This document shows, one piece after another, positions 6,178 through 46,050 of a stretch of DNA of 64,000 nt. The stretch comes from Chlorobiota bacterium. Its GTDB lineage: Bacteria; Bacteroidota; Ignavibacteria; Kapaibacteriales; NICIL-2. How positions within the stretch are numbered: the stretch's first letter is position 1; the number at the start of each line of letters is the position of its first letter. The notes beneath the pieces were generated by a model. It did no database searches. It worked only from the letters and a program-made list of their open reading frames with translations, and was not told the DNA's origin. The stretch is from the NCBI GenBank assembly GCA_026415505.1, contig JAOAGY010000032.1:294159-358158 (forward strand), read 5' to 3'. A program made the position numbers and the translations under genes.

Positions 6178-8073
6178 TCACTCCAGGTAGGTGTAGCCGT
6201 ACAGCCCCGACCGATACATTGCCAGAAATTCCTTCCCTTCGTGGAGCGTGACCAAATTCTCTTTGACCGCTTGCATCACCCACGTCTCCATCGTGCGCAC
6301 AAGACGCTTGGCGGAGAACTGCACGTAGTCGAGCACGTCTTCGACCGTCTCGCCTTCGATGATTTGGTCGATCCAATAGCTGTCTTCGTCGCAGACGATG
6401 TGAACGGCGTTCGTATCGCCGAAGAGATTGTGCAAATCGCCGAGAATTTCTTGGTATGCGCCGACCAAGAACACACCGATGTAGTACGGCTCCCCTTCCC
6501 GCAAGTCGTGCACCGACAGATAAGGCATCGTTTCGCGAATGCCGATGAACCGATCGATGCGACCGTCGCTGTCGCAGGTGATGTCGTGAAGTGTCGCACG
6601 TCGCAACGGCTTTTCATTGAGCCGCTGCAGCGGCATGATCGGAAAGAGCTGATCGATAGCCCACGAATCGGGTAGCGACTGAAACAGCGAAAAGTTGCAG
6701 AAATACTTGTCGGCGAGCAGCTTCGGCAGCACGCGCAATTCATCGGGAATGTGCCGAAATTCTTGCGCGTAGCGATTGACCGTCGTCGCGATACTCCAGA
6801 ACAATCGCTCGACTTTCGCTCGCGATCGAAGGTCGAACAATCCGAGCGCAAACAGTTCGAGCGACTCCTCGCGAAGCTGGAGTGCATCGTGCCACACCTC
6901 CATGATCGTGCGCGGCGAAACGTTGTTGAGCAGTGTGTAGAGTTCGCGCACGATTTCGTGGTCGTTCGGCTCGATCGTGTGGAGTGTGTCGTCCCACAGC
7001 GGCGTCGTCGCCGTTTCCAGCACGTTGAACACCAACACCGAATGGTGTGCAGTCAATGCGCGTCCTGCTTCGGTGATGACGTGTGGATGCGGCAGTTGAT
7101 GCTTGTCGGCGGCATCGAGGAGCGTAGCAATCGCGTCGTTGGCGTATTCTTGAATCGAGTAGTTGATGCTGCTTGCCAGCGTCGTCCGCGAGCCGTCATA
7201 ATCCACGCCCAAGCCACCGCCGATGTCCACGTATTCGATGGCACAACCGAGCCGGTGCAATTGCACGTAGAATTGAGCGACCTCGCGCAGCCCCGCTTTG
7301 ATTTTGCGGATGTTGGTGATTTGCGAGCCGAGATGGAAGTGAATCAATTTCAGCCAGGAAAGAATTCCCTCCTGTCGCGCCAGCTCGACCGCTTCCAGCA
7401 GTTCGCTCGCATTGAGACCGAATTTGCTTTGATCGCCGCCGGATTCCTCCCACTTGCCGCTGCCGCTTGCCGCCAGTCGTATGCGAATACCGACGTTCGG
7501 CACGACATTGAGCCGCCGCGCAATGTGAACGATGAGCTTCAGTTCGTTGAGTTTTTCGACGACGAGGAAAATTTTTTTGCCCATTTTGTGTGCCAGCAGC
7601 GCCAGCTCGATGAAGTCTTCGTCCTTGTAGCCATTGCAGATGATGAGTGCTTCGGGATTGTCCATGATGGGCAAAACGGCATGCAACTCCGGCTTGGAGC
7701 CAGCTTCCAAGCCGATGTTGAACTTCTTGCCGTAGCGGACGATTTCCTCGACGACCGGACGCTGCTGGTTGACCTTGATCGGGTAAACGTTGTAGTACTT
7801 GCCGTTGTAGCCGTACTCGGCGCGCGCGCGTTCGAAGCAGCCACTGATTTTCTCGATGCGATGATCGAGGATGTTCGGAAAACGCAAAAGCACTGGCGGA
7901 TTGATGTCCTTGAGCGCCAGTTCGTCCATCAACTCGCGAATGTCTATTGCCGGTCCGTTGTCCTTTCGCGGACGAACGACGACGTTGCCCTTTTCGTTGA
8001 TGCCGAAATAGCCGATACCCCAGCCGGCGATGTTGTAAAGTTCAGCCGAATCCTCGACACGCCACGTTCTCAC
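6178..8073 (-). CDS. speA: Biosynthetic arginine decarboxylase
   Basis: 631 aa. N-terminus MRTWRVEDSAELYNIAGWGIGYF and PLP-fold core (NVYPIKVNQQRPVVEEI...) match SpeA. The length is typical. Confidence 0.9.
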   Translation of the reverse strand: MRTWRVEDSAELYNIAGWGIGYFGINEKGNVVVRPRKDNGPAIDIRELMDELALKDINPPVLLRFPNILDHRIEKISGCFERARAEYGYNGKYYNVYPIKVNQQRPVVEEIVRYGKKFNIGLEAGSKPELHAVLPIMDNPEALIICNGYKDEDFIELALLAHKMGKKIFLVVEKLNELKLIVHIARRLNVVPNVGIRIRLAASGSGKWEESGGDQSKFGLNASELLEAVELARQEGILSWLKLIHFHLGSQITNIRKIKAGLREVAQFYVQLHRLGCAIEYVDIGGGLGVDYDGSRTTLASSINYSIQEYANDAIATLLDAADKHQLPHPHVITEAGRALTAHHSVLVFNVLETATTPLWDDTLHTIEPNDHEIVRELYTLLNNVSPRTIMEVWHDALQLREESLELFALGLFDLRSRAKVERLFWSIATTVNRYAQEFRHIPDELRVLPKLLADKYFCNFSLFQSLPDSWAIDQLFPIMPLQRLNEKPLRRATLHDITCDSDGRIDRFIGIRETMPYLSVHDLREGEPYYIGVFLVGAYQEILGDLHNLFGDTNAVHIVCDEDSYWIDQIIEGETVEDVLDYVQFSAKRLVRTMETWVMQAVKENLVTLHEGKEFLAMYRSGLYGYTYLE

Positions 8074-21696: not shown

Positions 21697-23663
21697 CGGA
21701 CGACGGAAAACGATACGCGATGCACTGTGCCACCGATCGTTGCGACGACGTAATATGTGCCTGTCGCGAAATGCTCGGTCGAGAGTGCTGCAACGCGTGC
21801 AGGCTCGACGATCGCAGCACGAGCCCCTCGTGCATCGTAAATCTCGATCGGACCGTCCGGCATTCGATCGAGCTCGATCCAGAGCGTGCCTGTCGCGGGA
21901 ATCGGATAGACCGCAAGCGGCTGTCGGTCGGGATGCGATTCGGCACTACTGACGACCGGAGCCGATGCCAACAGCACCAGCGCCCGAACCGAACGTCCTG
22001 CATTGACTGCAACCGACGTAAACGTTCCGAGCGAATCGAACACGAACGTATCGTCGCCGCTGCCGATCATGACGACCCGGTGCGACGTATCGCCACTGCC
22101 GATGAAGCTCAGCTCCAGCGGCAGCGTCGTGTACACGCCGAACGAATCGGGTTGCACTTGGCGAATGCGTACTGCAGCTTTCCAGCCGTGTTGCGATGGC
22201 GAGCGCAACGCTTCGATAGCGACGATGGGCCAACCTTTGCCGCGAATCCACTCGGCAAAAAAGCGCCGAACGAATTCTCCCCGACCGCTGACGTCGCCGA
22301 GTGTTCGCTCGAGAGTGTCGATCGAAACGTTCGCATAGCGATAGCGCTGCAGGAGCTCTCGGCACCACGCAAAATACACGCTGTCGCCCACCGCCCATCG
22401 CAGCATGCCGAGCACGGCGGCGCCTTTTTCGTAGATCACGTGCGGATAATTCGACGACGGCGGGGTGCGGTCGAAATCGTACATCGTCAAGATGCCCTCG
22501 AACGACGGATTGCCAGGCTTGGCGTACTGGTTCAGGTAGGCTGCTATTTTCCGCTGTTGCTCGGCAAGGTATGCGCTGTAGCCGCCGAGCTGTTCGCGCC
22601 AGAGCGATTCGCAGAACGTCGCGAAACTTTCGTTGAACCATGCATCGCGGAAATCCAGCGGCGTAGTGCAATCGCCGAACCACTGATGCGCCAGTTCGTG
22701 CGCAGCCACGAGGTTGACCGTATCGCCACTGCGTGCGAGCGACGTCGGGAAAGAAATCATCGTCTGGTGTTCCATCGCGCCTTTCTGCGTCATCGCGTAG
22801 CCGACTTTTTCGAAGGGATACGCCCCGAAACGCTGCTCGAAAGCACGCACCATGCGCGGAAGCAGTCGAAAGCTCCGCGACGTTGCTGCTGAATCGGCGC
22901 GACGAGCATAGAGAACGATCGGAACGTCGAGCGAGGTCGTGTCGCGAATGACGCTCAAAACCGATGAGGGAAACGCCGCAAACGTCAGCAGGTACGTCGC
23001 GGCAGGATAAACCGACCGGAAACGATACACCCGCCAGGAGCCACTGTCGAGCGGTGGCAGCTCCTCACCGCCCGCCGCGACGACATACGACGACGGCACA
23101 CGGAACGCCAGCGAGAACGTCGCTTTGTCGCTCGGATGATCGTAGCACGCAAGCCAGTGCTGCGTTGCCGACACGTAGTTGTTGTAGAACCCGACGCCGA
23201 GCGCATAGACGATACTCCCTTCGCGTTGCACACCGCCCCACGAGTAGCCGTTATAGGGCGGCTCGCCGGTCATCGTCCCGCGATAGGCGATCCGCAGCAC
23301 GACAGTATCGCCTTGGCGATGTGATGGCAACGCCGGCACCGCGTAGTGGAAGGTCGGATCGCTCGGCTGTCCTCTGACGAACCATTCGACCGGTATGGTG
23401 TCGCCCGCCTGCACATAGGCGACACCAGCGACCTGCAACGAACGCAAGTGGAAACGCACAGTATCCGGTGCGCGACGCCAGCGGAGTATCCACGTGCAGG
23501 AACTTTCGCCGAGGATCGGTTGCGGAAGCGAGTCCAGTGCGAGCGATGCATCGTAGTGCAAAACGTCGAACGATTGTTCGACGTAGCGCGTCGGCGAGGG
23601 AATCTCCTGAGCGCTCGCGACAACGAGCCAGCCGAAAACACCTACGATTGCAGCGATGATCAT
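21693..23663 (-). CDS. M1 family aminopeptidase with a T9SS C-terminal sorting domain
   Basis: Zinc motif HELAHQWFGD...E. Signal peptide from the internal Met (MIIAAIVGVFGWLVVASAQ). C-terminal roughly 80 aa are a T9SS-like sorting domain (…GTYYVVATIGGTVHRVSFSVVR). ATGA overlaps on both sides. Confidence 0.85.
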   Translation of the reverse strand: MIIAAIVGVFGWLVVASAQEIPSPTRYVEQSFDVLHYDASLALDSLPQPILGESSCTWILRWRRAPDTVRFHLRSLQVAGVAYVQAGDTIPVEWFVRGQPSDPTFHYAVPALPSHRQGDTVVLRIAYRGTMTGEPPYNGYSWGGVQREGSIVYALGVGFYNNYVSATQHWLACYDHPSDKATFSLAFRVPSSYVVAAGGEELPPLDSGSWRVYRFRSVYPAATYLLTFAAFPSSVLSVIRDTTSLDVPIVLYARRADSAATSRSFRLLPRMVRAFEQRFGAYPFEKVGYAMTQKGAMEHQTMISFPTSLARSGDTVNLVAAHELAHQWFGDCTTPLDFRDAWFNESFATFCESLWREQLGGYSAYLAEQQRKIAAYLNQYAKPGNPSFEGILTMYDFDRTPPSSNYPHVIYEKGAAVLGMLRWAVGDSVYFAWCRELLQRYRYANVSIDTLERTLGDVSGRGEFVRRFFAEWIRGKGWPIVAIEALRSPSQHGWKAAVRIRQVQPDSFGVYTTLPLELSFIGSGDTSHRVVMIGSGDDTFVFDSLGTFTSVAVNAGRSVRALVLLASAPVVSSAESHPDRQPLAVYPIPATGTLWIELDRMPDGPIEIYDARGARAAIVEPARVAALSTEHFATGTYYVVATIGGTVHRVSFSVVR

Positions 23664-24412
23664 CGGTCGTTCAGCATTCGAACACGGACTTGCCACTGCG
23701 CAAAATACTGCATCCACAGCGAGCGGCAAATCGTCGCGTCGGCAACGAGCAACAGTGCACCGATCGAACCGGCGAGCACGATACCGCTCCGTAGCGCAAC
23801 GACCGTGAAAAACGCGATCACACTGACCCCGACTGCATGCGACATGCGATGGACGCTGCTGCTGGTGCGAAGCGGCAACATCGCTACGAAGCTGACCAGG
23901 AACCACCCGACGAAATTCACCAGCGGAACGCCGTAGTAGAACCCCGCTTGATCCCACACCCACAACGTCATCGGTCCGATCGCCACGGGGTCAACGAGCA
24001 GGTCGTAGAGCATCATTGCCAGCGCTCCGATTGCGCGTGCAATCCAACGACGCTCGGTCAGCAGCGTTGCCCACGTCCAAGCATACGCCAAGAGAACGAG
24101 CCACGCTGCGACCATCACCAGCGGTACACCAGCGATCGCCAGTCCGAGTGTGTCGGTGTAGTGGTAGTGTCCGAACGGCACACCAGTCGCCACGCCGATG
24201 ATCTCGCTTGCAAAGCCGATAAGAGCACCGACGAGCAGCCGCAGAAACTGAGGATGCCGATGCACGACGATCACGCCTGCTGCAATCCACAGAAACAGCA
24301 TTTCGCCGTACCGGCGCAGTACTCCGACATCGCTTTCTGCAGCGCTTGTAAGCGCTCCGCCGACCAGGAGAACAACGAACAACCCGACCAGCAGCCTACG
24401 CACTCCGTTCAT
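23660..24412 (-). CDS. cruF: Carotenoid biosynthesis membrane protein (DUF422 / CruF-like carotenoid 1',2'-hydratase family)
   Basis: About 250 aa polytopic membrane protein inside the carotenoid operon. Sequence resembles the Caroten_synth/DUF422 family, which includes CruF. Start set at the internal Met (MNGVRRLLVGLFVVLL). Confidence 0.6.
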   Translation of the reverse strand: MNGVRRLLVGLFVVLLVGGALTSAAESDVGVLRRYGEMLFLWIAAGVIVVHRHPQFLRLLVGALIGFASEIIGVATGVPFGHYHYTDTLGLAIAGVPLVMVAAWLVLLAYAWTWATLLTERRWIARAIGALAMMLYDLLVDPVAIGPMTLWVWDQAGFYYGVPLVNFVGWFLVSFVAMLPLRTSSSVHRMSHAVGVSVIAFFTVVALRSGIVLAGSIGALLLVADATICRSLWMQYFAQWQVRVRMLNDR

Positions 24413-25871
24413 ACCGCTCGATGAGCTCGTACACCAACTTCGACGAAAGCACCACCATCGGCGTACCGCCACCGGGATGCGTACTGCCACCGACGTAGTA
24501 CAACCCCCGCACACAACGATCGCGCATCGGCGGTCGAAGGAATGCCGTGCGATACGAATGCGACGCCCATCCGTAGATCGAGCCACCCGGCATTGCGTAA
24601 TCGCGCTCGAATCGTTCCGGCGTCCATACCGAGCGCACGACGATATCGCTTTCGGCGATCGCGATACCGCGCCGTTCCAACACGCCAGCGATGCGCTCCC
24701 AGATCATCGGGATTGCATCCTCCCAACGCCGCGATTCGACAGCAGGAGCATTCGCCATCACGAAAAGCGTTTCTCCCCCTGGCGGTGCGACTGTGGGATC
24801 GGTTTTGCTGGTGACGTTGAGATAGACGGTCGGTTCGGTGGGAAATTCCGCCCGCTCGAACAACTGCTCGAACTCCCGCCGATAGTCGCTCGAAAAGGCG
24901 ATCGTGTGATGAAAAACGTCCGGCGGCAGCCGACGGCGTAAGCCGAGCAAAAACACCACGCCCGACATCGAGCGCTGGTAGAATCGCCGCCGCCGTGGCA
25001 GATCGAGCAGCGCATCGGCAGTCGTCGCATCGCCGTTGAACACCACCACATCGGCATCGAACATGTCTCCGCCAGAGAGCCGCACTCCACGGACGCGCCC
25101 GCTGCTGTGCACAATCTTTTCGACCGTTGCATTCGTCAGGATGCGCACTCCTCGCTCGCGCAAAGCACCGACGATCGTTTCGACGATGCCGTACAAACCG
25201 CCCTCGACGTACCATCCGCCGTGGGCGAACTCCAAGTACGGAATCACCAGCAACGTCGCGGGCGAACGATACGGCGATGACCCCACGTAGGTCGGATAGC
25301 GCTCGAAAATCTGCCGCAAATACGGACTCGAAAGATGACGCTCGACGGTCGCGGCATAATTGCCCCACGCATTCCGCAACGGCAGCCAATGCAACGATCG
25401 AACAAGCGAGAAAATCTGGTTCGGCTCGGGCAGTTCGGTCGGCACCGACTGGAAAAACGTTCGCGTCGAAAGTTCGAAAAGGTCGGCTGCAGTAGCCATC
25501 AGCTTCCAGTAGCCCTTTCCGCCGTCGGCTTCGTAGCGTTCGAGCATCGCCGCGATCGACGGGAGCGGACCCGGATATTCGATGCGTTCGCCGTCGGCGA
25601 AGCGGTACTGTGTCAGTGGCTGGAGCCTGCGAAAAACCAAATGCTGCCGAGAAACGCCGCAACGATCGAGCAAATCGGTAAAAACATGCGGCAGCGTGAT
25701 AAGCGACGGTCCCGTATCGAAGCGAAATCCGTCGGCAGCAAAAAGGTTCATCTTTCCGCCCGGCGAGCTGCTGCGCTCCAGTAGCGTCACGTTCCAGTCG
25801 TCGCTGGCTGCCCGCAAGGCGAGCGACAATCCTCCGAGACCGGCACCGACGACGATCATGCGCTTTTTCAT
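24396..25871 (-). CDS. CrtI-family carotenoid desaturase (CrtD-like, possibly a 3',4'-desaturase)
   Basis: FAD-binding N-terminus MKKRMIVVGAGLGGLSLA and GPSLI motif. About 491 aa. It is the second CrtI paralog in the operon. Confidence 0.8.
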   Translation of the reverse strand: MKKRMIVVGAGLGGLSLALRAASDDWNVTLLERSSSPGGKMNLFAADGFRFDTGPSLITLPHVFTDLLDRCGVSRQHLVFRRLQPLTQYRFADGERIEYPGPLPSIAAMLERYEADGGKGYWKLMATAADLFELSTRTFFQSVPTELPEPNQIFSLVRSLHWLPLRNAWGNYAATVERHLSSPYLRQIFERYPTYVGSSPYRSPATLLVIPYLEFAHGGWYVEGGLYGIVETIVGALRERGVRILTNATVEKIVHSSGRVRGVRLSGGDMFDADVVVFNGDATTADALLDLPRRRRFYQRSMSGVVFLLGLRRRLPPDVFHHTIAFSSDYRREFEQLFERAEFPTEPTVYLNVTSKTDPTVAPPGGETLFVMANAPAVESRRWEDAIPMIWERIAGVLERRGIAIAESDIVVRSVWTPERFERDYAMPGGSIYGWASHSYRTAFLRPPMRDRCVRGLYYVGGSTHPGGGTPMVVLSSKLVYELIERYERSA

Positions 25872-26986
25872 CGTAGCACCTTTCGAGGCAATTCCACACG
25901 ATAGCGACGTTGTTTCCACTCGACACCGCTCCCAAAGCGCCAGCGCCACAGCGATGCCAAACCGACGCCGATCAAAAACAGCTCTGCCACTGGATGCAGC
26001 AACACCGACCACGCTGCGTGTCGAAATCGAAGCGCCAAAACGAGACGTGCAACTCCGACTGCACCGGCTGCGATCGCAACGGGAACGGTCGGCGAAACCA
26101 GCAGCTTCACCAGCGGCATCGTAAAGACGACCGCATGCAATCCGAGGACGATCGGAAAGAGCCACTTTCGACGGAAGCCGGGATAGAAATTTTTTTGGAA
26201 ACCGCGCCAGATTTCCCCGATCGAACGATACATCCGCACGCGGGCGATGCTACTGCCGTCGCAGCAGAGCGCTCGCTCGCCGCTGGACCGCCATTGCCGC
26301 GCCAATGCAGTATCCTCGAAAAGCTCGCGGCGAACACAAGCATGCCCTCCGATGCGGAAGTACGTCTGACGATCGCACAGCAAGCACGAGCCGTGCGCCA
26401 GAGCGTATCGTGGGTGTTGCCAGTAGAGCTGCATCGGCGATGGGTAGAGCGTCATCACGTAAAAGTTCAGCATCGGCATCAAGACACGTTCGGCAAGCGA
26501 GCGCATCTCGATGGCAGGCCACGCCGAAAGCAGCGTCGCGCCGTGCTTCTGCGCCGTTGCGATCAACTGCTCGATCGCATTGGGTTGCAATCGTGTGTCG
26601 GCGTCGAGAAAGAGCATCCACCGATGCTGCGCGGCACAAGCCAGGCGGTAACACGCATGCGGTTTGCCGTACCAGCCGTCGGGCAGCGGCACAGTCTCGA
26701 GCACTCGCACTCGCCGATCGCGCTGTGCCCAGACTGTCGCGATCTGTCGGGTTCCGTCGCTCGATTGATCGTCGTAAACGAGAACCTCGGCGACGATACT
26801 GCCCTGCGCGACGACGCTGGCGATGCAGCCGCCGAGAACCTGCTCTTCGTTTCGTGCCGGTATCAAGACACTGACTCCGTCTTGGCTGCCACGTGCGGCT
26901 GCAACCGGACGCAGAAACGTCAATGCGTTGACGGTCGCAATACAGCAAAACGACAGTGCAAGCACAGCGATCGCCCACTCGATCAT
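25868..26986 (-). CDS. Family 2 glycosyltransferase (carotenoid glycosyltransferase CruC/CrtQ-like by context)
   Basis: GT-A fold motifs (VSVLIPARNEE..., YDDQSSDGT, LFLDADT). C-terminal TM helices. Located between carotenoid desaturases. Confidence 0.7.
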   Translation of the reverse strand: MIEWAIAVLALSFCCIATVNALTFLRPVAAARGSQDGVSVLIPARNEEQVLGGCIASVVAQGSIVAEVLVYDDQSSDGTRQIATVWAQRDRRVRVLETVPLPDGWYGKPHACYRLACAAQHRWMLFLDADTRLQPNAIEQLIATAQKHGATLLSAWPAIEMRSLAERVLMPMLNFYVMTLYPSPMQLYWQHPRYALAHGSCLLCDRQTYFRIGGHACVRRELFEDTALARQWRSSGERALCCDGSSIARVRMYRSIGEIWRGFQKNFYPGFRRKWLFPIVLGLHAVVFTMPLVKLLVSPTVPVAIAAGAVGVARLVLALRFRHAAWSVLLHPVAELFLIGVGLASLWRWRFGSGVEWKQRRYRVELPRKVLR

Positions 26987-27717
26987 GCTGCATCGAACAC
27001 GATCGGTGCGACTTTTTCCGGTGCTTCGTCGAGCAACAGGTGTCCAGCACCTGCGATGCAGAACACATCAGCGCGCTGTAGCGTGCGTTGCCACGTCGGT
27101 ATCGAACGCCGCACGGCTCGGAACGTCCGCTCGCCGTACACCAACGCCACCGGAACGTTCACGTTGCGGTATCGTTCGGGTCCGGGCAATCGTGCCAGTG
27201 CTTTGAGATATGCGCGCGTGGACTGTGCGCTTTTATCGGCGAACGACGCCATCAGGTCGGATCGCTCGGTTCGACGCATGCGAAGAGCAGCGTTGACGAT
27301 CCGCCGCCCCAACGACGAATCGAACGTCAGGCGATAGGCAATGGAACCGATCGGTTCGCTCGTAAAAAAGCGGAAATACCACGGCATGTAGGCGAAGAGA
27401 TCGAGTGCAACGATACGCACAATGTGCTGCGGCACGAGCAACGCCACTTCGAGCGCCAGAACTGCACCGCTGCACGAGCCGACGATGACGACATCGCTCG
27501 CCAACGTCTCGACGATTGTCGCAAGCGATTCTGCCACACATTCGATGCTGAATCGTTCGATCATCGGCGAGGAACCGTAGCCCGGCAAATCGGGCGCAAG
27601 CAAGCGCCACGTGTTCGGTACGAACGGACGTAGCGGTGCGAACGTTCGATGGTCGCCGCCCCAGCCGTGCAGCCCGAAAGCGATCTGCGACCCGCTACCG
27701 TACTCGACGACGTGCAT
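26983..27717 (-). CDS. Alpha/beta-hydrolase-fold protein with a G-S-C-S-G nucleophile box (Cys at the nucleophile position). Candidate acyltransferase or esterase of the carotenoid operon.
   Basis: 245 aa from the internal Met MHVVEYGSGSQIAFGLHGWGG. Nucleophile-elbow sequence IVGSCSGAVLA. C-terminal GAGHLLLDEAP (probable catalytic His). The ORF-track N-terminal extension overlaps crtI and is rejected. Confidence 0.65.
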   Translation of the reverse strand: MHVVEYGSGSQIAFGLHGWGGDHRTFAPLRPFVPNTWRLLAPDLPGYGSSPMIERFSIECVAESLATIVETLASDVVIVGSCSGAVLALEVALLVPQHIVRIVALDLFAYMPWYFRFFTSEPIGSIAYRLTFDSSLGRRIVNAALRMRRTERSDLMASFADKSAQSTRAYLKALARLPGPERYRNVNVPVALVYGERTFRAVRRSIPTWQRTLQRADVFCIAGAGHLLLDEAPEKVAPIVFDAA

Positions 27718-29173
27718 CGGCGGCGACTTCTTGTGCAACCATTTTCCCGCCGAGAACGACCATCGGCAGTCCTGTTCCCGGTGTCGTGCTGGCGCCGACG
27801 TAGTACAGCCCTGCGATGCGTGGATCACGATTCGGCGGACGTAGCGGACCGATGTTCCAAAGCGTGTGCGACAGCCCAAATGCCGAACCATCGTACAAGC
27901 CGAATTCTGCTTGCCATTCGAGCGGTGTCCAGACATGTTCGACGGCAATATCGCTCGGCGACAGTTCCACACCGTGGAGCCGGAGTCTTTGCAACACTTC
28001 GTTGCGTGCACGGTCGGTCGCTCGCTGCCAATCGAAGCTGTTGCCCGCACCGCTGAGTGTTGGCGACGGTACGAGGACGAACATCGTGCTGCATCCGGTC
28101 GGTGCGGCACTGCTATCGGTTCGCGATGGCATGCAGACGTAAAACGGCAAATCCTCCGGCAGTCTGGAACGAAGCTGACGATAGGCAGTGCGCGGATCGT
28201 CGGGCAAAAAGATGCAGTGATGATGCAAACACTCGACGACACGGCTGATGCCCCAGTAGAACGTGATCACGCCCGGTGTCATCGTCCAGCGGCGCCGCAC
28301 GGGGCGCGTGCCTTGTACCATCTGCTGCGTCGTCGGCACGTCCACGTTCGACACGATCGCATCGGCTGTAACGGTGGTGCCATCGTCGAGCTGTACCGCC
28401 TGCGCACGACCGTTTGTCACGACGATCGAACGCACAGGACGCTTGCAGAAAATGCGGACACCGATTTCTTCCGCTCTGCGGCGGATTGCTTCGACCAGCG
28501 CATAAATGCCACCGCGCGGATACCACAAGCCGTAGTACAGCTCTCCGAACGGCAGTATGCTGAACGTTCCCGGCAAGCTGTACGGCGATCCACCCAAGTA
28601 CATCGCATACGAACCGAGCGCTGCACGAATGCGGTCGGAACGGAAAAACCGTGCTAACTCCGCATCGAGCGAACGATGCAAGCCGAGTCGCAGCAACGGG
28701 CGTTTCGGCGCCGGTCCGATCCATGCGGCGATCGTGCGGGCATTCGACAAAACCAAGTGATCGAAGAGAAAGCGAAAGCGCTCGGCGTTGGTGGCAAGAA
28801 AAGCTGCGAGCTTGGCGTGAGCTGTCGGTTCGAACTGTTCGAACTGGTGCGCCAAGCGCTCGAAGTCCGAACCGAGCTGCAATCTGCTCCCGTCACGCCA
28901 GTAGAACTCGACCGATGGATCGAGCGGCAGAAGTTCGACGTAGTCCCGCAACGCCGCACCCGCAGCGGCAAAGAGCTGTTCGAACACCCACGGATAGTTG
29001 ATGAGCGACGGTCCCGTATCGAAGCGAAATTCGTCGCGCTCGATGCGATTGGCACGACCGCCGACTTGCGTGTTCTTTTCGTACACGTCGACATCGAAGC
29101 CCATCGCGCGAAGATGGATCGCAGCACTCAATCCGCCCAGTCCTGCGCCGACGATGACGACATGCTTGCTCAT
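27695..29173 (-). CDS. crtI: Phytoene desaturase
   Basis: FAD-binding N-terminus MSKHVVIVGAGLGGLSAAIHL. GPSL motif. About 492 aa. ATGA overlap with the crtB stop. Confidence 0.85.
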   Translation of the reverse strand: MSKHVVIVGAGLGGLSAAIHLRAMGFDVDVYEKNTQVGGRANRIERDEFRFDTGPSLINYPWVFEQLFAAAGAALRDYVELLPLDPSVEFYWRDGSRLQLGSDFERLAHQFEQFEPTAHAKLAAFLATNAERFRFLFDHLVLSNARTIAAWIGPAPKRPLLRLGLHRSLDAELARFFRSDRIRAALGSYAMYLGGSPYSLPGTFSILPFGELYYGLWYPRGGIYALVEAIRRRAEEIGVRIFCKRPVRSIVVTNGRAQAVQLDDGTTVTADAIVSNVDVPTTQQMVQGTRPVRRRWTMTPGVITFYWGISRVVECLHHHCIFLPDDPRTAYRQLRSRLPEDLPFYVCMPSRTDSSAAPTGCSTMFVLVPSPTLSGAGNSFDWQRATDRARNEVLQRLRLHGVELSPSDIAVEHVWTPLEWQAEFGLYDGSAFGLSHTLWNIGPLRPPNRDPRIAGLYYVGASTTPGTGLPMVVLGGKMVAQEVAADARRRVR

Positions 29174-30222
29174 TTGCCGTACTCGGGAGTGATCAGCGAT
29201 AGCGGCACGACCCAATACTTCGATGGCGGCAGACATGCGAACTTTCGCCTCCACGGTACACTCGCGCGTCGCTGGGGATCGCGTTGGTGTTCGAGCATCG
29301 TCGTCAGCTCGCCGTACACCGCGATGCATGCCGAAATAGCCGGTACGCACGACGGATCGAACGCGTCGAGATGCTTTTGCGCATCGCGGTAGTAGTCCCA
29401 CGCGATTTGTGCGTACCTGCCGATGACGTAATCGGTCGCACGCCGATCGGTGCCCGCGAGAAACTCGTCGTATGCCACACCGGCTTCGCGGAGCAACTGC
29501 TGCGGAACGTAACAGCGTCGCCGATGGTGATCCTCTCGGAAGTCGCGAAGGAAGTTCGTCAGTTGCAATGCGATTCCCAGCGAGCGCGCGGACTGAAGCG
29601 CCTCGGTAATCGAACGTCCCGGCGCAGTGCCGTAAACGTAGGTCAAAAAGTAGCCGACGACAATCGCACTGCCATAGACGTAGCCTTCGATGAGGTCATC
29701 GAACGTTTCGAACGGCATCGGAGCAATGTCGAATTCCATGGCATCGAGGAACGCGTGATAATGCTCGGCGGGAATGCCGTTGCGACGCACGACATCGGCG
29801 AATCCTGCGACGATCGGATGGCAACCTGCACGCACGCTTTCCACCAACGACGCGCACGCGATCGCTCGGTCGTAGTCGCCGCGCCACCGACGGAGAACGC
29901 GACGCTTGTCGCCATCCTGCAACGGAAAGGTATCGACCACTTCGTCCGGATAGCGCACCGCAGCGTAGATCGTTTCGACGTCGCGGCGCTTGGCACGCGG
30001 CAGAAAGCGTGTGACAATGAAAAAACTCGTGCTGTAGCGACGCAACACACGCCACGCCGCATCGGCAATGATGCGGCGTGCTTCGTCGTCGGTCGCGGCA
30101 CGATTGCAGCGCTCGATGAGCCGCTCGGAAAATCGTTGCCACTGTCGGAGCGACCAACTGGCTGATGGCACAGGCACACGTTCATCGGTTCGACCGCTGC
30201 TGCAAACGCAGCGAGCAGTCAT
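29170..30222 (-). CDS. crtB: Phytoene synthase (squalene/phytoene synthase family)
   Basis: 350 aa. Isoprenoid-synthase fold with aspartate-rich regions (…YAAVRYPDEVVD…, …FLRDFREDHHRRRCYVP…). Head of the carotenoid gene string. Confidence 0.85.
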   Translation of the reverse strand: MTARCVCSSGRTDERVPVPSASWSLRQWQRFSERLIERCNRAATDDEARRIIADAAWRVLRRYSTSFFIVTRFLPRAKRRDVETIYAAVRYPDEVVDTFPLQDGDKRRVLRRWRGDYDRAIACASLVESVRAGCHPIVAGFADVVRRNGIPAEHYHAFLDAMEFDIAPMPFETFDDLIEGYVYGSAIVVGYFLTYVYGTAPGRSITEALQSARSLGIALQLTNFLRDFREDHHRRRCYVPQQLLREAGVAYDEFLAGTDRRATDYVIGRYAQIAWDYYRDAQKHLDAFDPSCVPAISACIAVYGELTTMLEHQRDPQRRASVPWRRKFACLPPSKYWVVPLSLITPEYGK

Positions 30223-37571: not shown

Positions 37572-39908
37572 TCAACGCCCCGGGAGAACGATCAACGGAT
37601 ACGTAACAGTACGATTGCCGCTGGACCGAATCACGAGCATGTAAAAACCAGCGGCAACATCGCTCATATCGAGGGTCGTTCGCCCGATGCAGTCGTAGCG
37701 ACCAACGACACTACCCGTTACCGAATACAGTACCGCTTCGACTGCATCTGTAGTGGGCAGCCGAAGTTCCGACTCGACGACAAGTCCATAACTGGCTTTC
37801 GTCGCTTTTGCTTCCTCTTCGACACGAGAGATACCGGTTATTTCGATGCGAAGTATTACACCGTAATCGTCACTGCACCAAATCGTGCCGTCGGGCGATT
37901 TGTCGCAACTTATCCTACTCAGTGGCACACCTCTGGGTCGAGGTACAGGATACCAGCTCTTGCCACCATCGCCAGTGTAGATGAAACCAGAAGCGACATA
38001 GCCTGCCGACAGGGTGTTGATCCGTGGTGCCATTATCACACACCGAGAGGCATCTGCAAGTGTCAAACTGTATTGCTGCGCAGTCGGAATGTAGAGCCAG
38101 AATCCCACTAACTGGCGTGACCATGTCCATCCGCCGTCCGTAGTCAATAAAAGCCACAATTGGAGCGTATCGGGATTGTAAACCTGACGACGGATGCAGA
38201 CACCTATGACTTTGTCCGATACGGCATCGAAGGCAACTACTGTTTCATTTTTTTCATTTTCATTGTACGACAATGGAATTGTCGTCAGCTTACGCCACGT
38301 GATCCCGGAATCAACCGAAGAGTAAATGACGCCGCTTGCCTCGTCGGTACATAAAAGGGTATTGCCTGCACGCACGATACGCAGAGGAGCGAGTATCTCC
38401 AAAGTATCGTGTCGGCGCCACGATTGTCCTCCATCAGTGGAAATCCAGTAGTAAAATGATTTCGGTGAGCTACCACCATACGCACCAACACCGATGATGA
38501 CTCCAGGCGAAGCACTCAGGAGTTGTGTCAATATCCCCATATCGCTCGGTGGATCGGGAAGTGGTTGCCATGACTTTCCTCCGTCGCTGGTTCGGAAAAA
38601 CCGCATCGTCGGCGATACGCCACGGTGCTGGTAGAAAATACCGTTGGAGCGATCGGTGAATACAACGATCGTTGACCTGGCAACTGTATCGATCGGTATG
38701 CTTTGGAACCATGTCGTTCCTCTATCGTCGGTTTTCAATGCTACTGAGCCTAATCCCCACGCGACCACTGTACTATCGTCTATCGCTTGAATGCCGGTCA
38801 ACGTTTCTGTGCTGGGGATCACTTTTTCCCATGCGTTGCCGGGGCGTTTTCGGTAAACGCTTCCACGCTGTGTCGCAAACCACAACGTACCGTCCTTCCC
38901 TGCCGTCGCATGATACGCAATCGATCCAGTTGCTCTCCAGGTATAATCAATGAGTGCATTGGGGAGCCATTCGGGGAACCAAGTTTTTCCGCCATCAGTG
39001 GTCGTCATTACCGGTGGTGTTGTGTTTTGGTATCCACCGAAGAAATTCGCACCGCTGACAAAACCACGAGCCGAATCCAACCAGATGATGTTCTGCTTGT
39101 AGCAGTAGGGATATTCCTCTCCGAATTCAGCGATCAAGTCCCACGATCGTCCCCGATCGGTACTACGAAGCAAGGCTCCTCCCTCGGCATACCAAATGCT
39201 ACTATCCGAACTCTGGAAGAAGCGCTGCAGCATAAAGTCGTACATGCTGAATTGTGGTATTCGACGCGGTGGAGTCAGTGCTTGTTGCCACGTATCTCCT
39301 CCGTCACTGGTGAAGTAGATCCGATAGGTCGAATCCATCGGACTGAGGAGAACAACACCTTCTTGTCGTGAGAAAAAATGGAGGATAATCGGTCTTGTTC
39401 CGAGAGTACTGCGGGTGATCGTTTGCCAGCTTTTTCCTCGATCGGACGAGTGGAAAAGCAAGAATCCATCATTTTCTCCCTGAGCCGCAGCGAACCAGTT
39501 CTCTGAATCGAGAGCAAACAACGCAGTTACTTCTGTTGCACTATCGATGGTCATCGGACCGACGATCGAATCGCCGCGGAGCAACCAGACTCTCCTCGGG
39601 TACGAAGCAATGATCGTATCGTATGTACTTGTACCTATACCTTGAACATTATAGAACAATCCTCCGAGAGTGTCGGGATAAGAGAATCGCAATCGCACCC
39701 ACGTTTTCCCGCCATCGGTCGTGCGGAACGCATCGTTGCACAGTGATAGGACATTTAGTGAATCGCGCGCTAAAATCGGACCTCCGGTGTTGCCAGGGAA
39801 TGGCGGATTGACACGTTCTACTCTGATATCCGATCCCTGCGCAAGCAAAAGTGCCGCCCCAAACGCTGCTGCAACAGCGATACATAGTGGCATCCGAAAC
39901 AGCAGCAT
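37572..39908 (-). CDS. BNR/Asp-box repeat protein (about 14 repeats, probably two beta-propellers, GH74/sortilin-like) with a T9SS C-terminal sorting domain, in a low-GC island
   Basis: 778 aa. Signal peptide. Repeated S/T-x-D-G-G-x-T/S-W motifs (TDGGKTW, SDRGKSW, TDGGDTW, ...). C-terminal sorting domain (…GFYMLVIRSSGNRTVTYPLIVLPGR). GC is visibly lower than in neighbouring genes. Confidence 0.75.
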   Translation of the reverse strand: MLLFRMPLCIAVAAAFGAALLLAQGSDIRVERVNPPFPGNTGGPILARDSLNVLSLCNDAFRTTDGGKTWVRLRFSYPDTLGGLFYNVQGIGTSTYDTIIASYPRRVWLLRGDSIVGPMTIDSATEVTALFALDSENWFAAAQGENDGFLLFHSSDRGKSWQTITRSTLGTRPIILHFFSRQEGVVLLSPMDSTYRIYFTSDGGDTWQQALTPPRRIPQFSMYDFMLQRFFQSSDSSIWYAEGGALLRSTDRGRSWDLIAEFGEEYPYCYKQNIIWLDSARGFVSGANFFGGYQNTTPPVMTTTDGGKTWFPEWLPNALIDYTWRATGSIAYHATAGKDGTLWFATQRGSVYRKRPGNAWEKVIPSTETLTGIQAIDDSTVVAWGLGSVALKTDDRGTTWFQSIPIDTVARSTIVVFTDRSNGIFYQHRGVSPTMRFFRTSDGGKSWQPLPDPPSDMGILTQLLSASPGVIIGVGAYGGSSPKSFYYWISTDGGQSWRRHDTLEILAPLRIVRAGNTLLCTDEASGVIYSSVDSGITWRKLTTIPLSYNENEKNETVVAFDAVSDKVIGVCIRRQVYNPDTLQLWLLLTTDGGWTWSRQLVGFWLYIPTAQQYSLTLADASRCVIMAPRINTLSAGYVASGFIYTGDGGKSWYPVPRPRGVPLSRISCDKSPDGTIWCSDDYGVILRIEITGISRVEEEAKATKASYGLVVESELRLPTTDAVEAVLYSVTGSVVGRYDCIGRTTLDMSDVAAGFYMLVIRSSGNRTVTYPLIVLPGR

Positions 39909-39912
39909 AGTC

Positions 39913-40503
39913 TCAATTACAAACGACTCGACATTCAGGGTTCGGGTCGCAGTTGTACGTGCTACCAGGCTGGCATTGGCTTAACTGTCGACCAAACTTT
40001 TGTACTCTACGGCGTCCGTTTTCATAACAGACACGCCAATTCTGAATACAACACGTACCAGTCGGACACGGTAAATCGACTGGACCTTGCATAAAAGGAA
40101 CATCGTTACAGCGAGCAAAGCATGTCGAAAAACGCACTGTGATCGACCAATCGCATGAGTCCTGTGGTATTTTTTGACACGTATCCAACGGCAGAGGAGC
40201 ATCGGTCAGCAGAGACTGTACGATAATATCGTAGAGATCAGGTGTAAGTGGCGGAGGATTGCAACCTGTGCCAAGATATTGCACTGCATCGATTGCAATC
40301 ACCGAGCAGTCCAGTTGACCGTTGCAGATGAGTATTGAGAATGCAACTCGCAGTGTACATGGAGGTGCGATGATCATGTTCTCGTAGGTACTGTATTGCA
40401 TCCACATGCAACTATCGGGTGGCGGGCATGGTGCTTGCGCTTGGGCGAGCAACGGAGAAAGTACAAGCGCGAAGAGAAACTGTAATCGTCCGAGTAGTTT
40501 CAT
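39913..40503 (-). CDS. Secreted cysteine-rich protein (18 Cys in about 172 mature residues), no recognised family
   Basis: 196 aa. Signal peptide MKLLGRLQFLFALVLSPLLAQAQA. Cys and Pro rich. A strong AGGAGG Shine-Dalgarno sequence lies 9 nt upstream. Low GC. Lies 5 nt upstream of the BNR gene on the same strand. Confidence 0.6.
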   Translation of the reverse strand: MKLLGRLQFLFALVLSPLLAQAQAPCPPPDSCMWMQYSTYENMIIAPPCTLRVAFSILICNGQLDCSVIAIDAVQYLGTGCNPPPLTPDLYDIIVQSLLTDAPLPLDTCQKIPQDSCDWSITVRFSTCFARCNDVPFMQGPVDLPCPTGTCCIQNWRVCYENGRRRVQKFGRQLSQCQPGSTYNCDPNPECRVVCN

Positions 40504-40512
40504 CAGCTTTTT

Positions 40513-40552
40513 CCTCCTCAGGTAGTTTTACGTGCTGACACTTGTAAATATA
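40513..40552 (-). promoter_or_regulatory. Ribosome-binding site (GAGGAGG, 40513-40519) and an upstream AT-rich -10/-7-like element (TATATTT, 40546-40552) for the island operon
   Basis: Read on the minus strand: ...TATGCGTATATTTACAAGTG...CCTGAGGAGGAAAAAGCTGATG. A consensus Shine-Dalgarno sequence is unusual relative to other gene starts in this window. Confidence 0.35.
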
Positions 40553-40561
40553 CGCATAGTT

Positions 40562-40601
40562 TTCGTAAAAACCATAACGCATCTAACAGCACAATGCGCA
40601 G
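40562..40601 (-). terminator. Possible weak intrinsic terminator downstream of ribE
   Basis: Minus-strand GCGCATtgtgctgttagATGCGT followed by TATGGTTTTTAC. The imperfect 5-6 bp stem is followed by a T-run. Weak. Confidence 0.2.
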
Positions 40602-40694
40602 GCACAGTGAAAGCTTCAACATACGTTGCGAAAGTGCCCCGTGTAGCTGTTTGGCAGTATCGATTGGAAAAATGTTCCGTCGAGAACTCTTGTC

Positions 40695-41285
40695 TCACCT
40701 CGCCCGCAGCAATCCTTCGACGTATTTGGCGATGATGTCGAATTCGAGATTGACATCGTCGCCGACATGGCGGAACTGCAGCGTTGTCTGCTGCCACGTA
40801 TGCGGAATAATTGCAACCATGAAGCGATTGCTGTCGGCTCGCGCAACTGTCAGACTGATGCCATCGAGCGCGATCGAACCGAGTGGCACGACGTAGCGCA
40901 TTTTTTCTGACGGACATTCGACCCACACCTGCCGTTCTGTGCCCGAGTGTTCCAGCATGACGATACGCCCGATCGCTTCGACATGCCCGGTGACGATGTG
41001 CCCGCCGAGTCGTGTCGTCGGTCGCACGGCACGTTCGAGATTGACGCCATCGCCGACAGCAAGCCGACCGAGCGTCGTTTTGCGCAGCGTTTCTTCGACG
41101 GCGATCACACGGAACCAATCGCTGCCCCGCTCGACGACCGTTTGACACACGCCTTGCACCGCGATCGAATCGCCGATTGCAAGATCGTCCAACACTTTCG
41201 ATGCCCCGATTGTCAGCCGCCGAGAGCCGCTGCTATCGGCGATATCTCGAATGGTGCCGATTTCCTCGATCAATCCGGTAAACAT
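40695..41285 (-). CDS. ribE: Riboflavin synthase (alpha chain)
   Basis: 196 aa from MFTGLIEEIGTI. Two lumazine-binding repeats (…GDSIAVQGVCQTV…, …GSIALDGISLTV…). Confidence 0.85.
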   Translation of the reverse strand: MFTGLIEEIGTIRDIADSSGSRRLTIGASKVLDDLAIGDSIAVQGVCQTVVERGSDWFRVIAVEETLRKTTLGRLAVGDGVNLERAVRPTTRLGGHIVTGHVEAIGRIVMLEHSGTERQVWVECPSEKMRYVVPLGSIALDGISLTVARADSNRFMVAIIPHTWQQTTLQFRHVGDDVNLEFDIIAKYVEGLLRAR

Positions 41286-44781: not shown

Positions 44782-45291
44782 ATGTCACTACAGGTTGCGC
44801 TGTTTTTCCTGTTCGGTATCGGTGCGATCGCAACGGCGATAGGAACGATCACGCGACGCAATCCGGTCGCTGCTGCGGTCAATTTGATCGCGCACTTTTT
44901 CATGCTCGCCGGTCTCTACCTCACGCTCGAAGCACAACTGCTTGCGGTGCTTCAAATTCTCGTCTATGCCGGCGCAATCATGGTGCTGGTCGTGTTCGTG
45001 ATCATGCTTCTCAACTTGGGCGACGACCGAGCGCTCCGCGAGCAGTTCACGGTGCGAAAAGTCGTCGGTGTCGTGCTGGCTGCAATGTTCATGCTCCAAG
45101 TCGGCGTGTTGATCAATGCGCAGCCGACAGGTGCGACGTCGCTCGCGCCGACGGCAGCATCGCTCGGCACCGCCGAGAGCATCGGACAGGCACTGTTCAC
45201 GCAGTACCTTTTCCCCTTCGAGGCGATTTCATTGCTGCTCCTGGCTGCGCTGGTGGGAGCAATCATCTTGGCAAAACGCAAAGTCGAATAA
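44782..45291 (+). CDS. nuoJ: NADH-quinone oxidoreductase subunit J
   Basis: 169 aa. Five-TM pattern with [22 protein letters not shown], typical of NuoJ/ND6. Confidence 0.8.
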
Positions 45292-45304
45292 CCTGGCAAT
45301 TCCG

Positions 45305-45619
45305 ATGAATCTGCAGAGCATTCCACTCGATTGGTACTTGATCGTCGCAGCGGTTCTGTTCACAATCGGCGTCGTCGGTGTCGTCACACGGCGCAATGCT
45401 ATCGTCGTCTTCATGGCGATCGAGATGATGCTCAATTCGGTGAACTTGGTGTTCGTCAGCTTTGCGCAGTTCCTCGGCGACATTGCCGGACAAATCTTCG
45501 TGCTCTTTGTGATGGCAGTCGCTGCAGGGGAAGCTGCTATCGGGCTTGCAATCGTGCTGGCGCTGTTTCGCAACAAGCGCACCGTGTACGTCGACGAGGT
45601 AAACGTCCTCAAATGGTGA
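45305..45619 (+). CDS. nuoK: NADH-quinone oxidoreductase subunit K
   Basis: 104 aa. [48 protein letters not shown] is typical of NuoK/ND4L. Confidence 0.85.
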
Positions 45620-45661
45620 CACGAGACACCGCAATCACGGCGGTGTATCGAGCAGAGGTAA

Positions 45662-46050
45662 GATGCCGAAACAAGTTCGGCATGACTACAGAGAGAACCG
45701 TCACCCTGAACTCGTTTCAGGGTCCCGCCGCATTCCTTGTCACCCTGAACTCGTTTCAGGGTCTCGTCCCCATGTGCAGGAGATGCCGAAACAAGTTCGG
45801 CATGACTACAGAGAGAATCGTCACCCTGAACTCGTTTCAGGGTCCCGTCTCCACGTGCAGGAGATGCCGAAACAAGTTCGGCATGACTACAGAGAGAACC
45901 GTCACCCTGAACTCGTTTCAGGGTCTCGTCCCCACGTGCAAGAGATGCCGAAACAAGTTCGGCATGACGTAAGCGGAATGTCACCCTGAACTTGTTTCAG
46001 GGTCTTTCCCCCGACGTGCAAGAGATGCCCAACCAAGTTCGGCATGACGA
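45662..46050. repeat. Tandem array (about 4.5 copies) of an 80-81 bp composite unit containing two distinct perfect 8-bp-stem hairpins
   Basis: Hairpin A is ATGCCGAAacaagTTCGGCAT, starting near 45662, 45782, 45863, 45944 and 46024 (the last copy degenerate). Hairpin B is ACCCTGAActcgtTTCAGGGT, starting near 45700, 45739, 45820, 45901 and 45980. Intervening segments are conserved (tacagagagaaccgt; tcgtccccacgtgcagg), so these are not unique spacers. Confidence 0.85.

Follow-up and report, generated by a model that had tools for sequence, protein, structure and literature searches.

A cysteine-nucleophile alpha/beta-hydrolase of bacterial carotenoid operons as a candidate non-orthologous counterpart of CruD

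The window analysed here is a 64-kb stretch of contig JAOAGY010000032.1 from a Chlorobiota bacterium. Its minus strand carries an operon with the order crtB-crtI-ABH-GT2-crtD-cruF, in which ABH is the alpha/beta-hydrolase gene under study and GT2 encodes a family 2 glycosyltransferase. This order, proposed in a preliminary description of the sequence, is borne out by Pfam and NCBIfam matches. All five junctions overlap, by 23 nt between the crtI stop and the ABH start, by 17 nt between crtD and cruF, and as ATGA at crtB/crtI, ABH/GT2 and GT2/crtD, in keeping with the translational coupling of ABH to both neighbours that had been described. The six genes, which are bordered on the two sides of the operon by genes for an amidohydrolase and an M1 peptidase, are as follows.

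29170..30222, minus strand: crtB, phytoene synthase, first gene of the operon (PF00494 SQS_PSY, E = 1.1e-57)
27695..29173, minus strand: crtI, phytoene desaturase (TIGR02734 crtI_fam, 391.7 bits, passing the cut-off of 238)
26983..27717, minus strand: ABH, 244-aa alpha/beta-hydrolase with a predicted Cys82-His226-Asp106 triad (Abhydrolase_6, E = 7.6e-21; AlphaFold2 model)
25868..26986, minus strand: GT2, glycosyltransferase of CruC/CruG/HpnB type with transmembrane segments (PF00535 Glycos_transf_2, E = 2.3e-23)
24396..25871, minus strand: crtD-like 1-hydroxycarotenoid 3,4-desaturase (crtI_fam, 335 bits; CrtD NF045637, 301 bits, below the cut-off of 580)
23660..24412, minus strand: cruF-like carotenoid 1,2-hydratase, a membrane protein, last gene of the operon (PF04240 Caroten_synth, E = 3.1e-32)

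ABH runs from an ATG codon (27717-27715) to a TGA codon (26985-26983) and encodes a protein that begins MHVVEYGSGS and ends DAA; its coordinates stand as first reported, and its length is 244 aa rather than 245. Besides Abhydrolase_6, the protein matches Abhydrolase_1 (E = 2.1e-12). A 419-aa open reading frame (ORF) with a GTG start (26983-28242) was rejected as the ABH gene, because it is an upstream run into crtI and homologues share the ABH Met start. Long plus-strand ORFs antisense to the carotenoid genes, at 25910-27337 (475 aa, overlapping GT2 and ABH) and 23837-24424, were likewise set aside as high-GC by-products. Among the tailoring proteins, GT2 scores below threshold with both CruG (145.6 bits, cut-off 600) and HpnB (162 bits, cut-off 379), and CruF models match the cruF-like protein only below their cut-offs. 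Pfam scans of the window found no lycopene cyclase, ketolase, hydroxylase or crtE. Since there is no cyclase, ketolase or hydroxylase, an acyclic pigment is expected, and the myxol- or salinixanthin-type pathway first suggested for this operon does not fit.

The catalytic residues of ABH map to three short stretches of the gene.

27466..27480, minus strand: nucleophile elbow G80-S-C82-S-G84 (Cys codon TGC at 27472-27474)
27400..27402, minus strand: Asp106, probable catalytic acid after strand 6 (of 88 sequences, 86 have Asp and 2 have Glu)
27040..27042, minus strand: His226 (G-A-G-H-L), catalytic His following the final strand (88 of 88 sequences have it)

When a profile built from 30 members of the ABH family was compared with PDB sequences, Cys82 aligned to the nucleophile Ser of PlaF (6i8w, GNSMG) and RPA1511 (GHSAG), as well as to Ser82 of E. 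coli BioH. In the AlphaFold2 model of ABH (mean predicted local distance difference test score, pLDDT, 96), Cys82 sits between strand 76-81, which is strand 5, and helix 83-94, which is helix C, as in a classical nucleophile elbow. The three alignments and the model thus agree with the preliminary description, which had placed a Cys at the nucleophile position and named as its check an alignment that might put this residue outside the elbow; it lies inside. The C-terminal His motif noted there also holds, as His226 follows the final strand in the model and is aligned, in BioH and PlaF, to the region of the catalytic His. In addition to His226, all 88 sequences share G80, C82, G84, H17-G18-W19, H23 and R138. 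The canonical acid position after strand 7, occupied by Asp207 in BioH, corresponds to residue 198 and is Thr or Ser in these sequences. The triad is therefore most likely Cys82-His226-Asp106, the part of Asp106 being a prediction. Such conservation, without exception at Cys82, His226 and Arg138 and with only Asp or Glu at position 106 in all 88 sequences, implies catalysis.

ABH has an alpha/beta-hydrolase fold by its Pfam matches, by the expected order of strands and helices in the model, and by Foldseek matches at probability 1.0 to many structures of this fold. It also belongs to the Cys-nucleophile mechanistic class, with Cys at the catalytic-Ser position of the Sm-x-Nu-x-Sm elbow. At about 20% identity, Foldseek matched only generic PDB structures, namely BpoC, BioH and further esterases along with dehalogenases, epoxide hydrolases and KAI2; none is a diagnostic structural analogue.

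By both sequence profile and fold, the proteins closest to ABH are BioH, PlaF and other Abhydrolase_6 esterases. In the family-profile comparison the alignment takes in almost the full length for BioH and the N-terminal half for PlaF, and the HGW oxyanion loop and a DLPGxG motif are held in common. However, BioH and PlaF combine a Ser nucleophile with an acid after strand 7, whereas ABH has Cys and, probably, an acid after strand 6; set against the BioH triad of Ser82, Asp207 and His235, ABH has Cys for Ser and Thr198 at the place of Asp207. The cap domain of BioH, with its arginines that bind acyl carrier protein (ACP), does not align to ABH. An assignment as BioH was rejected (TIGR01738, 62.5 bits against a cut-off of 206.95, over the N-terminal part only), as was one as BchO, whose model matches over the full length at 53.4 bits against a cut-off of 172.55 (TIGR03056); the BchO-like RPA1511 has a Ser nucleophile where ABH has Cys. 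Like ABH, BchO and CrtV are hydrolase-fold genes beside crtI or crtB that have no established function, as in the gene order of the Rhodobacter and Streptomyces clusters; CrtV is reportedly referred to as a 'methylesterase'.

Two further families resemble ABH in their active site. PhaC shares the alpha/beta-hydrolase fold and the G-x-C-x-G box, and transfers acyl groups through the kind of thioester intermediate that we propose for ABH. Yet ABH is less than half the size of PhaC and was rejected as a PhaC-type synthase, having neither a PhaC_N domain (PF07167) nor a match to an NCBIfam model of polyhydroxyalkanoate synthases, so that the PhaC-type likeness pointed out earlier is limited to the GxCxG box. 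Dienelactone hydrolase is also an alpha/beta-hydrolase with a Cys-His-Asp triad, but it differs from ABH in acid topology and cap domain, and this assignment too was rejected, as PF01738 was not among the Pfam matches at E <=0.01.

No curated family was found for ABH, and no NCBIfam model reaches its cut-off with the window protein. A word-indexed search returned about 97 clusters at E <1e-30, followed by a drop to 1e-10, and an exhaustive profile search found 120 representatives at E <=1e-30 among 1.84 billion (50%-identity clusters). The family is small, sharply bounded and uncharacterised, at about 100 clusters, and literature searches on carotenoid clusters and on hydrolase genes beside them found no publication describing it. 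All named members come from metagenome-assembled genomes (MAGs), assigned to Kapabacteria/Chlorobiota, Blastocatellia, Pyrinomonadaceae, Bryobacteraceae, Verrucomicrobiota and Myxococcota, together with one bin labelled NC10. The closest relative in species-representative genomes belongs to a Kapabacteria MAG (66% identity). Searches with the family and at GT2 loci found no homologue in cyanobacteria or in Rhodothermus-type clusters. More distant relatives (E 1e-25 to 1e-39, GFCMGG type) also have Cys at the nucleophile position and likewise have no curated family. One of these, at L088 (13-1277, GFCMG box), lies directly after a SPASM-domain radical-SAM gene, which hints at a separate role of this sister group, possibly in peptide modification; as a clue to the function of the window ABH, this neighbour was uninformative.

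To follow the genomic context of ABH, the six window proteins and crtE were mapped onto 93 non-redundant ABH loci with flanks of up to 10 kb. crtI lies directly 5' of ABH in 76 of the 86 loci with sufficient sequence, usually with overlapping stop and start codons. On the 3' side, 53 of 80 loci have crtE as the adjoining gene, 13 have GT2 and 14 have another gene. Where at least 6 kb were available on both flanks (n = 58), GT2 was present in 47 loci and cruF in 45. The commonest order was crtB-crtI-ABH-(crtE)-GT2-crtD-cruF. The search of other carotenoid clusters that the preliminary description had called for finds ABH in conserved cassettes across phyla: the six-gene cassette turns up again, with ABH identities of 36-66%, in MAGs of Kapabacteria, Blastocatellia/Pyrinomonadaceae, Bryobacteraceae and Verrucomicrobiota and in NC10-labelled ones. 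Besides the window, L001, L003, L099, L101 and L129 have ABH immediately 5' of GT2.

Two groups of loci have distinctive surroundings. In Acidobacteriota (L001 853-7927 and others), genes for a CarH-like MerR/B12-binding regulator, a DUF1731 short-chain dehydrogenase/reductase (SDR), an SRPBCC protein, photolyase and TspO precede the cassette. This arrangement resembles a light regulon and suggests that the block as a whole is induced by light in a B12-dependent manner. In Verrucomicrobiota (Methylacidiphilales-like) MAGs, ABH belongs to a different conserved block, in which genes for a small secreted protein and then a Sel1-repeat protein precede it and one for a secreted TSP3-like protein follows (L004/L072, L064, L065, L076-L080 and L083; for example, L004 6649-9201), with hpnC/D/E-like squalene genes about 7 kb away.

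The preliminary description had remarked that the operon holds no CruD-type acyltransferase gene. This extends to the whole window: neither a hidden Markov model (HMM) derived from the cassettes, run on all six frames (best E = 0.99), nor Pfam scans found a PlsC/CruD-type acyltransferase. In Rhodothermus marinus, cruD is in one operon with crtI and cruF-crtB (PMC7414004). For a wider view, 12 cassette GT2 proteins were aligned and the alignment was used to scan metagenome contigs, yielding 80 GT2 loci. Three cassette types can be told apart among them, with ABH (type A, 10 loci), with a PF01553 acyltransferase (type B), or with neither (type C). Type B cassettes have the order crtI-crtB-x-lycopene cyclase-crtD-[220 aa]-GT2-cruF with genes of crtZ or crtW type behind it, and the 220-aa protein directly 5' of GT2 is an acyltransferase of CruD type with an HX4D motif (PNHISWWDGF). 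In type C cassettes (L102, L103 and L105), the order is crtB-crtI-GT2-crtD-cruF and crtI runs straight into GT2. L101 carries ABH at a GT2 divergence equal to that of the type C loci.

The HMM for the PF01553 acyltransferase matched 19 of the 80 GT2 loci, in most of them abutting the GT2 start. None of the 87 ABH loci contains this acyltransferase, and none of the 19 acyltransferase loci contains ABH. Thus, ABH and the CruD-type gene are mutually exclusive, and both can fill the slot 5' of GT2. All-against-all clustering of genes near the ABH loci gave no alternative conserved acyltransferase, only clusters of crtE, photolyase, CarH-like, SDR, SRPBCC and idi genes. L101 and the three type C loci form a natural presence/absence pair for ABH. 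The latter are low-GC marine cassettes in which the crtI stop lies at about 7900 and the GT2 start at about 7900-8000, and a HAD-type hydrolase gene follows.

Together, mutual exclusivity and a shared slot 5' of GT2 are the pattern expected if ABH were a non-orthologous replacement of CruD; judged from sequence, this pattern supports such a replacement but does not prove it. CruD (PlsC/LPLAT type, from Chlorobaculum and Rhodothermus) and ABH would have in common their proposed role and their position before a homologous GT2. They differ in that CruD has an HX4D motif and forms no covalent intermediate, whereas ABH has an unrelated fold and a Cys-His-Asp triad and stays with crtI rather than GT2; without a PF01553 match, ABH itself was rejected as a CruD/PlsC-type protein. 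Cys nucleophiles in the alpha/beta-hydrolase fold, as in PhaC and some thioesterase domains, favour acyl transfer. We therefore tentatively suggest, with somewhat less than even confidence, that ABH is an acyl-S-Cys transacylase that acts on a carotenoid glycoside in place of CruD. In this scheme CruF and CrtD would convert lycopene to a 1-hydroxy-3,4-didehydro end group, to which GT2 would attach a sugar. ABH, a cytoplasmic enzyme, would take up an acyl group from acyl-ACP, acyl-coenzyme A or a phospholipid as a covalent thioester on Cys82, with His226 and Asp106 completing the triad and the HGW loop and the residue following Cys forming the oxyanion hole, and would pass the fatty acyl group to that sugar, standing in for the PlsC-type CruD acyltransferase of related cassettes. 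Inferred in this scheme are the substrate, the acyl donor and a reaction that runs towards transfer and not hydrolysis.

A number of observations weigh against this proposal. ABH is linked to crtI (76/86 loci) and not to GT2, which is the next gene in only 13/80. Where the GT2-crtD-cruF block lies upstream (L007, L048, L053, L066 and L100), ABH is still found behind crtI. Among the well-flanked loci, six with crtB-crtI-ABH(-crtE) lack GT2 within 10 kb; L085 and L087, which carry crtD and cruF, also lack it; and, overall, ABH occurs in operons with no nearby GT2 at L015, L024, L030, L044, L052, L085 and L087. About 10 loci have no crt genes beside ABH at all. No carotenoid genes adjoin ABH in one clade of Verrucomicrobiota or in two loci of Myxococcota, L005, where ABH follows genes for a photolyase and a flavin amine-oxidase-like protein, and L031. 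The exclusivity with CruD-type genes tracks clades and so represents few independent events, and a cruD gene may be present elsewhere in ABH-carrying genomes, as the searches covered the window and the loci. Finally, the ABH carriers include no cultured organism with a known pigment. The earlier placing of ABH in the position of CruD is thus supported by the exclusivity and the shared slot, and weakened by the linkage to crtI and by the persistence of ABH where GT2, or the carotenoid cluster as a whole, is missing.

Several of these observations would fit a different role, in which ABH hydrolyses lipids or thioesters in general as part of a light or photo-oxidative stress response; it would be co-transcribed with the carotenoid genes through shared induction by light and would not act on carotenoids. 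The CarH-like regulator, SDR, SRPBCC, photolyase and TspO genes ahead of the Acidobacteriota cassettes, the photolyase and flavin amine-oxidase-like genes beside the L005 copy with its lack of crt genes, and the secreted Sel1- and TSP3-like proteins around the Verrucomicrobiota copies all speak for it, and the nearest relatives by sequence are the phospholipase A1 PlaF and BioH. But the slot between crtI and crtE or GT2, with its overlapping codons, is kept in at least four phyla, the window operon has housekeeping genes on its flanks and no adjoining photolyase or CarH gene, and so clean an exclusion of CruD-type genes would be unexpected of a generic enzyme. We consider this role unlikely, though less so than the two that follow.

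The tight association with crtI raises another possibility, that ABH works with CrtI or on the polyene, in a reaction of lycopene or of hydroxylated derivatives of it that involves no acyl group, such as thiol-assisted cis/trans isomerisation, or a part of C-2 oxygenation in end groups of the oscillol, myxol or salinixanthin type. Cofactor-free dioxygenases and dehalogenases of the alpha/beta-hydrolase fold also place the acid after strand 6. crtI precedes ABH in the great majority of loci, even where the tailoring block has moved or is absent, and GT2 also resembles the 2'-O-glycosyltransferase CruG. Further, the 2-hydroxylase has no assigned gene in cyanobacteria or Rhodothermus (PMC11857680; PMC7414004). 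These are, however, the groups in which no ABH homologue was found, and the type C cassettes beside their sister L101 indicate that CrtI is independent of ABH. We also know of no precedent for non-acyl chemistry of this kind by a Cys nucleophile in this fold. We therefore regard a non-acyl step with CrtI as rather improbable, and the more specific version of it, that the ABH family is a new kind of carotenoid-pathway enzyme, a CrtI partner carrying out non-acyl end-group chemistry on the polyene through Cys-His-Asp, as more doubtful still; such chemistry may be C-2 oxygenation or diol formation before 2-O-glycosylation, or thiol-mediated isomerisation.

Least probable, in our view, is that ABH is an esterase that removes or remodels an acyl group which an acyltransferase with its gene elsewhere has put on a carotenoid glycoside: such a role would share its operon and triad evidence with acyl transfer, the fold is mostly hydrolytic and the top structural matches are esterases, but no conserved acyltransferase lies near any of the 87 ABH loci, an operon coding for the removal step alone would be odd, and Cys nucleophiles are uncommon in simple esterases.

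That type C cassettes exist shows that CrtI and the remaining pathway do not require ABH, which argues for an accessory tailoring or protective function rather than a part in lycopene synthesis. Acylated carotenoid glycosides are common membrane pigments; to our knowledge, CruD and CrtO are the only acyltransferase types known for them, and several tailoring steps have no enzyme. ABH is a member of a portable carotenoid cassette of six or seven genes in several, mostly uncultured phyla, and from its sequence it is a plausible candidate for a non-orthologous carotenoid-glycoside acyltransferase or another tailoring enzyme. Natural cassettes that have ABH (L101), have neither gene (L102/L103/L105) or have CruD instead (L147/L151) make its function directly testable, and knowing that function would sharpen the prediction of pigments from metagenomes.

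A further gene of interest in the cassettes with a PlsC-type acyltransferase is a conserved ORF that codes for about 190 aa and lies close to the gene for lycopene cyclase (L147 4503-5063, L151 4565-5158 and L136 2160-2741). In L147 and L151 it lies between crtB and the cyclase gene, and the L147 copy, the one scanned, has no Pfam match. This ORF is a candidate for a tailoring step that has no assigned enzyme.

Two other features of the window lie away from the carotenoid operon. An intergenic tandem array at 45648-46049 consists of about 4-5 copies of an 81-nt unit with 86-100% identity, each unit carrying two GC-rich hairpins, GTCACCCTGAACTCGTTTCAGGGTC and GATGCCGAAACAAGTTCGGCATGAC; a 251-aa ORF (45229-45984) runs across some of these repeats and is probably spurious. 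On the minus strand at 37572-41148, three ORFs, encoding a BNR/Sortilin-type protein, a Cys-rich secreted protein of 196 aa and a 206-aa product, have a third-position GC content of 0.42-0.52, against 0.6-0.75 in the rest of the window, and this patch may have been acquired horizontally.

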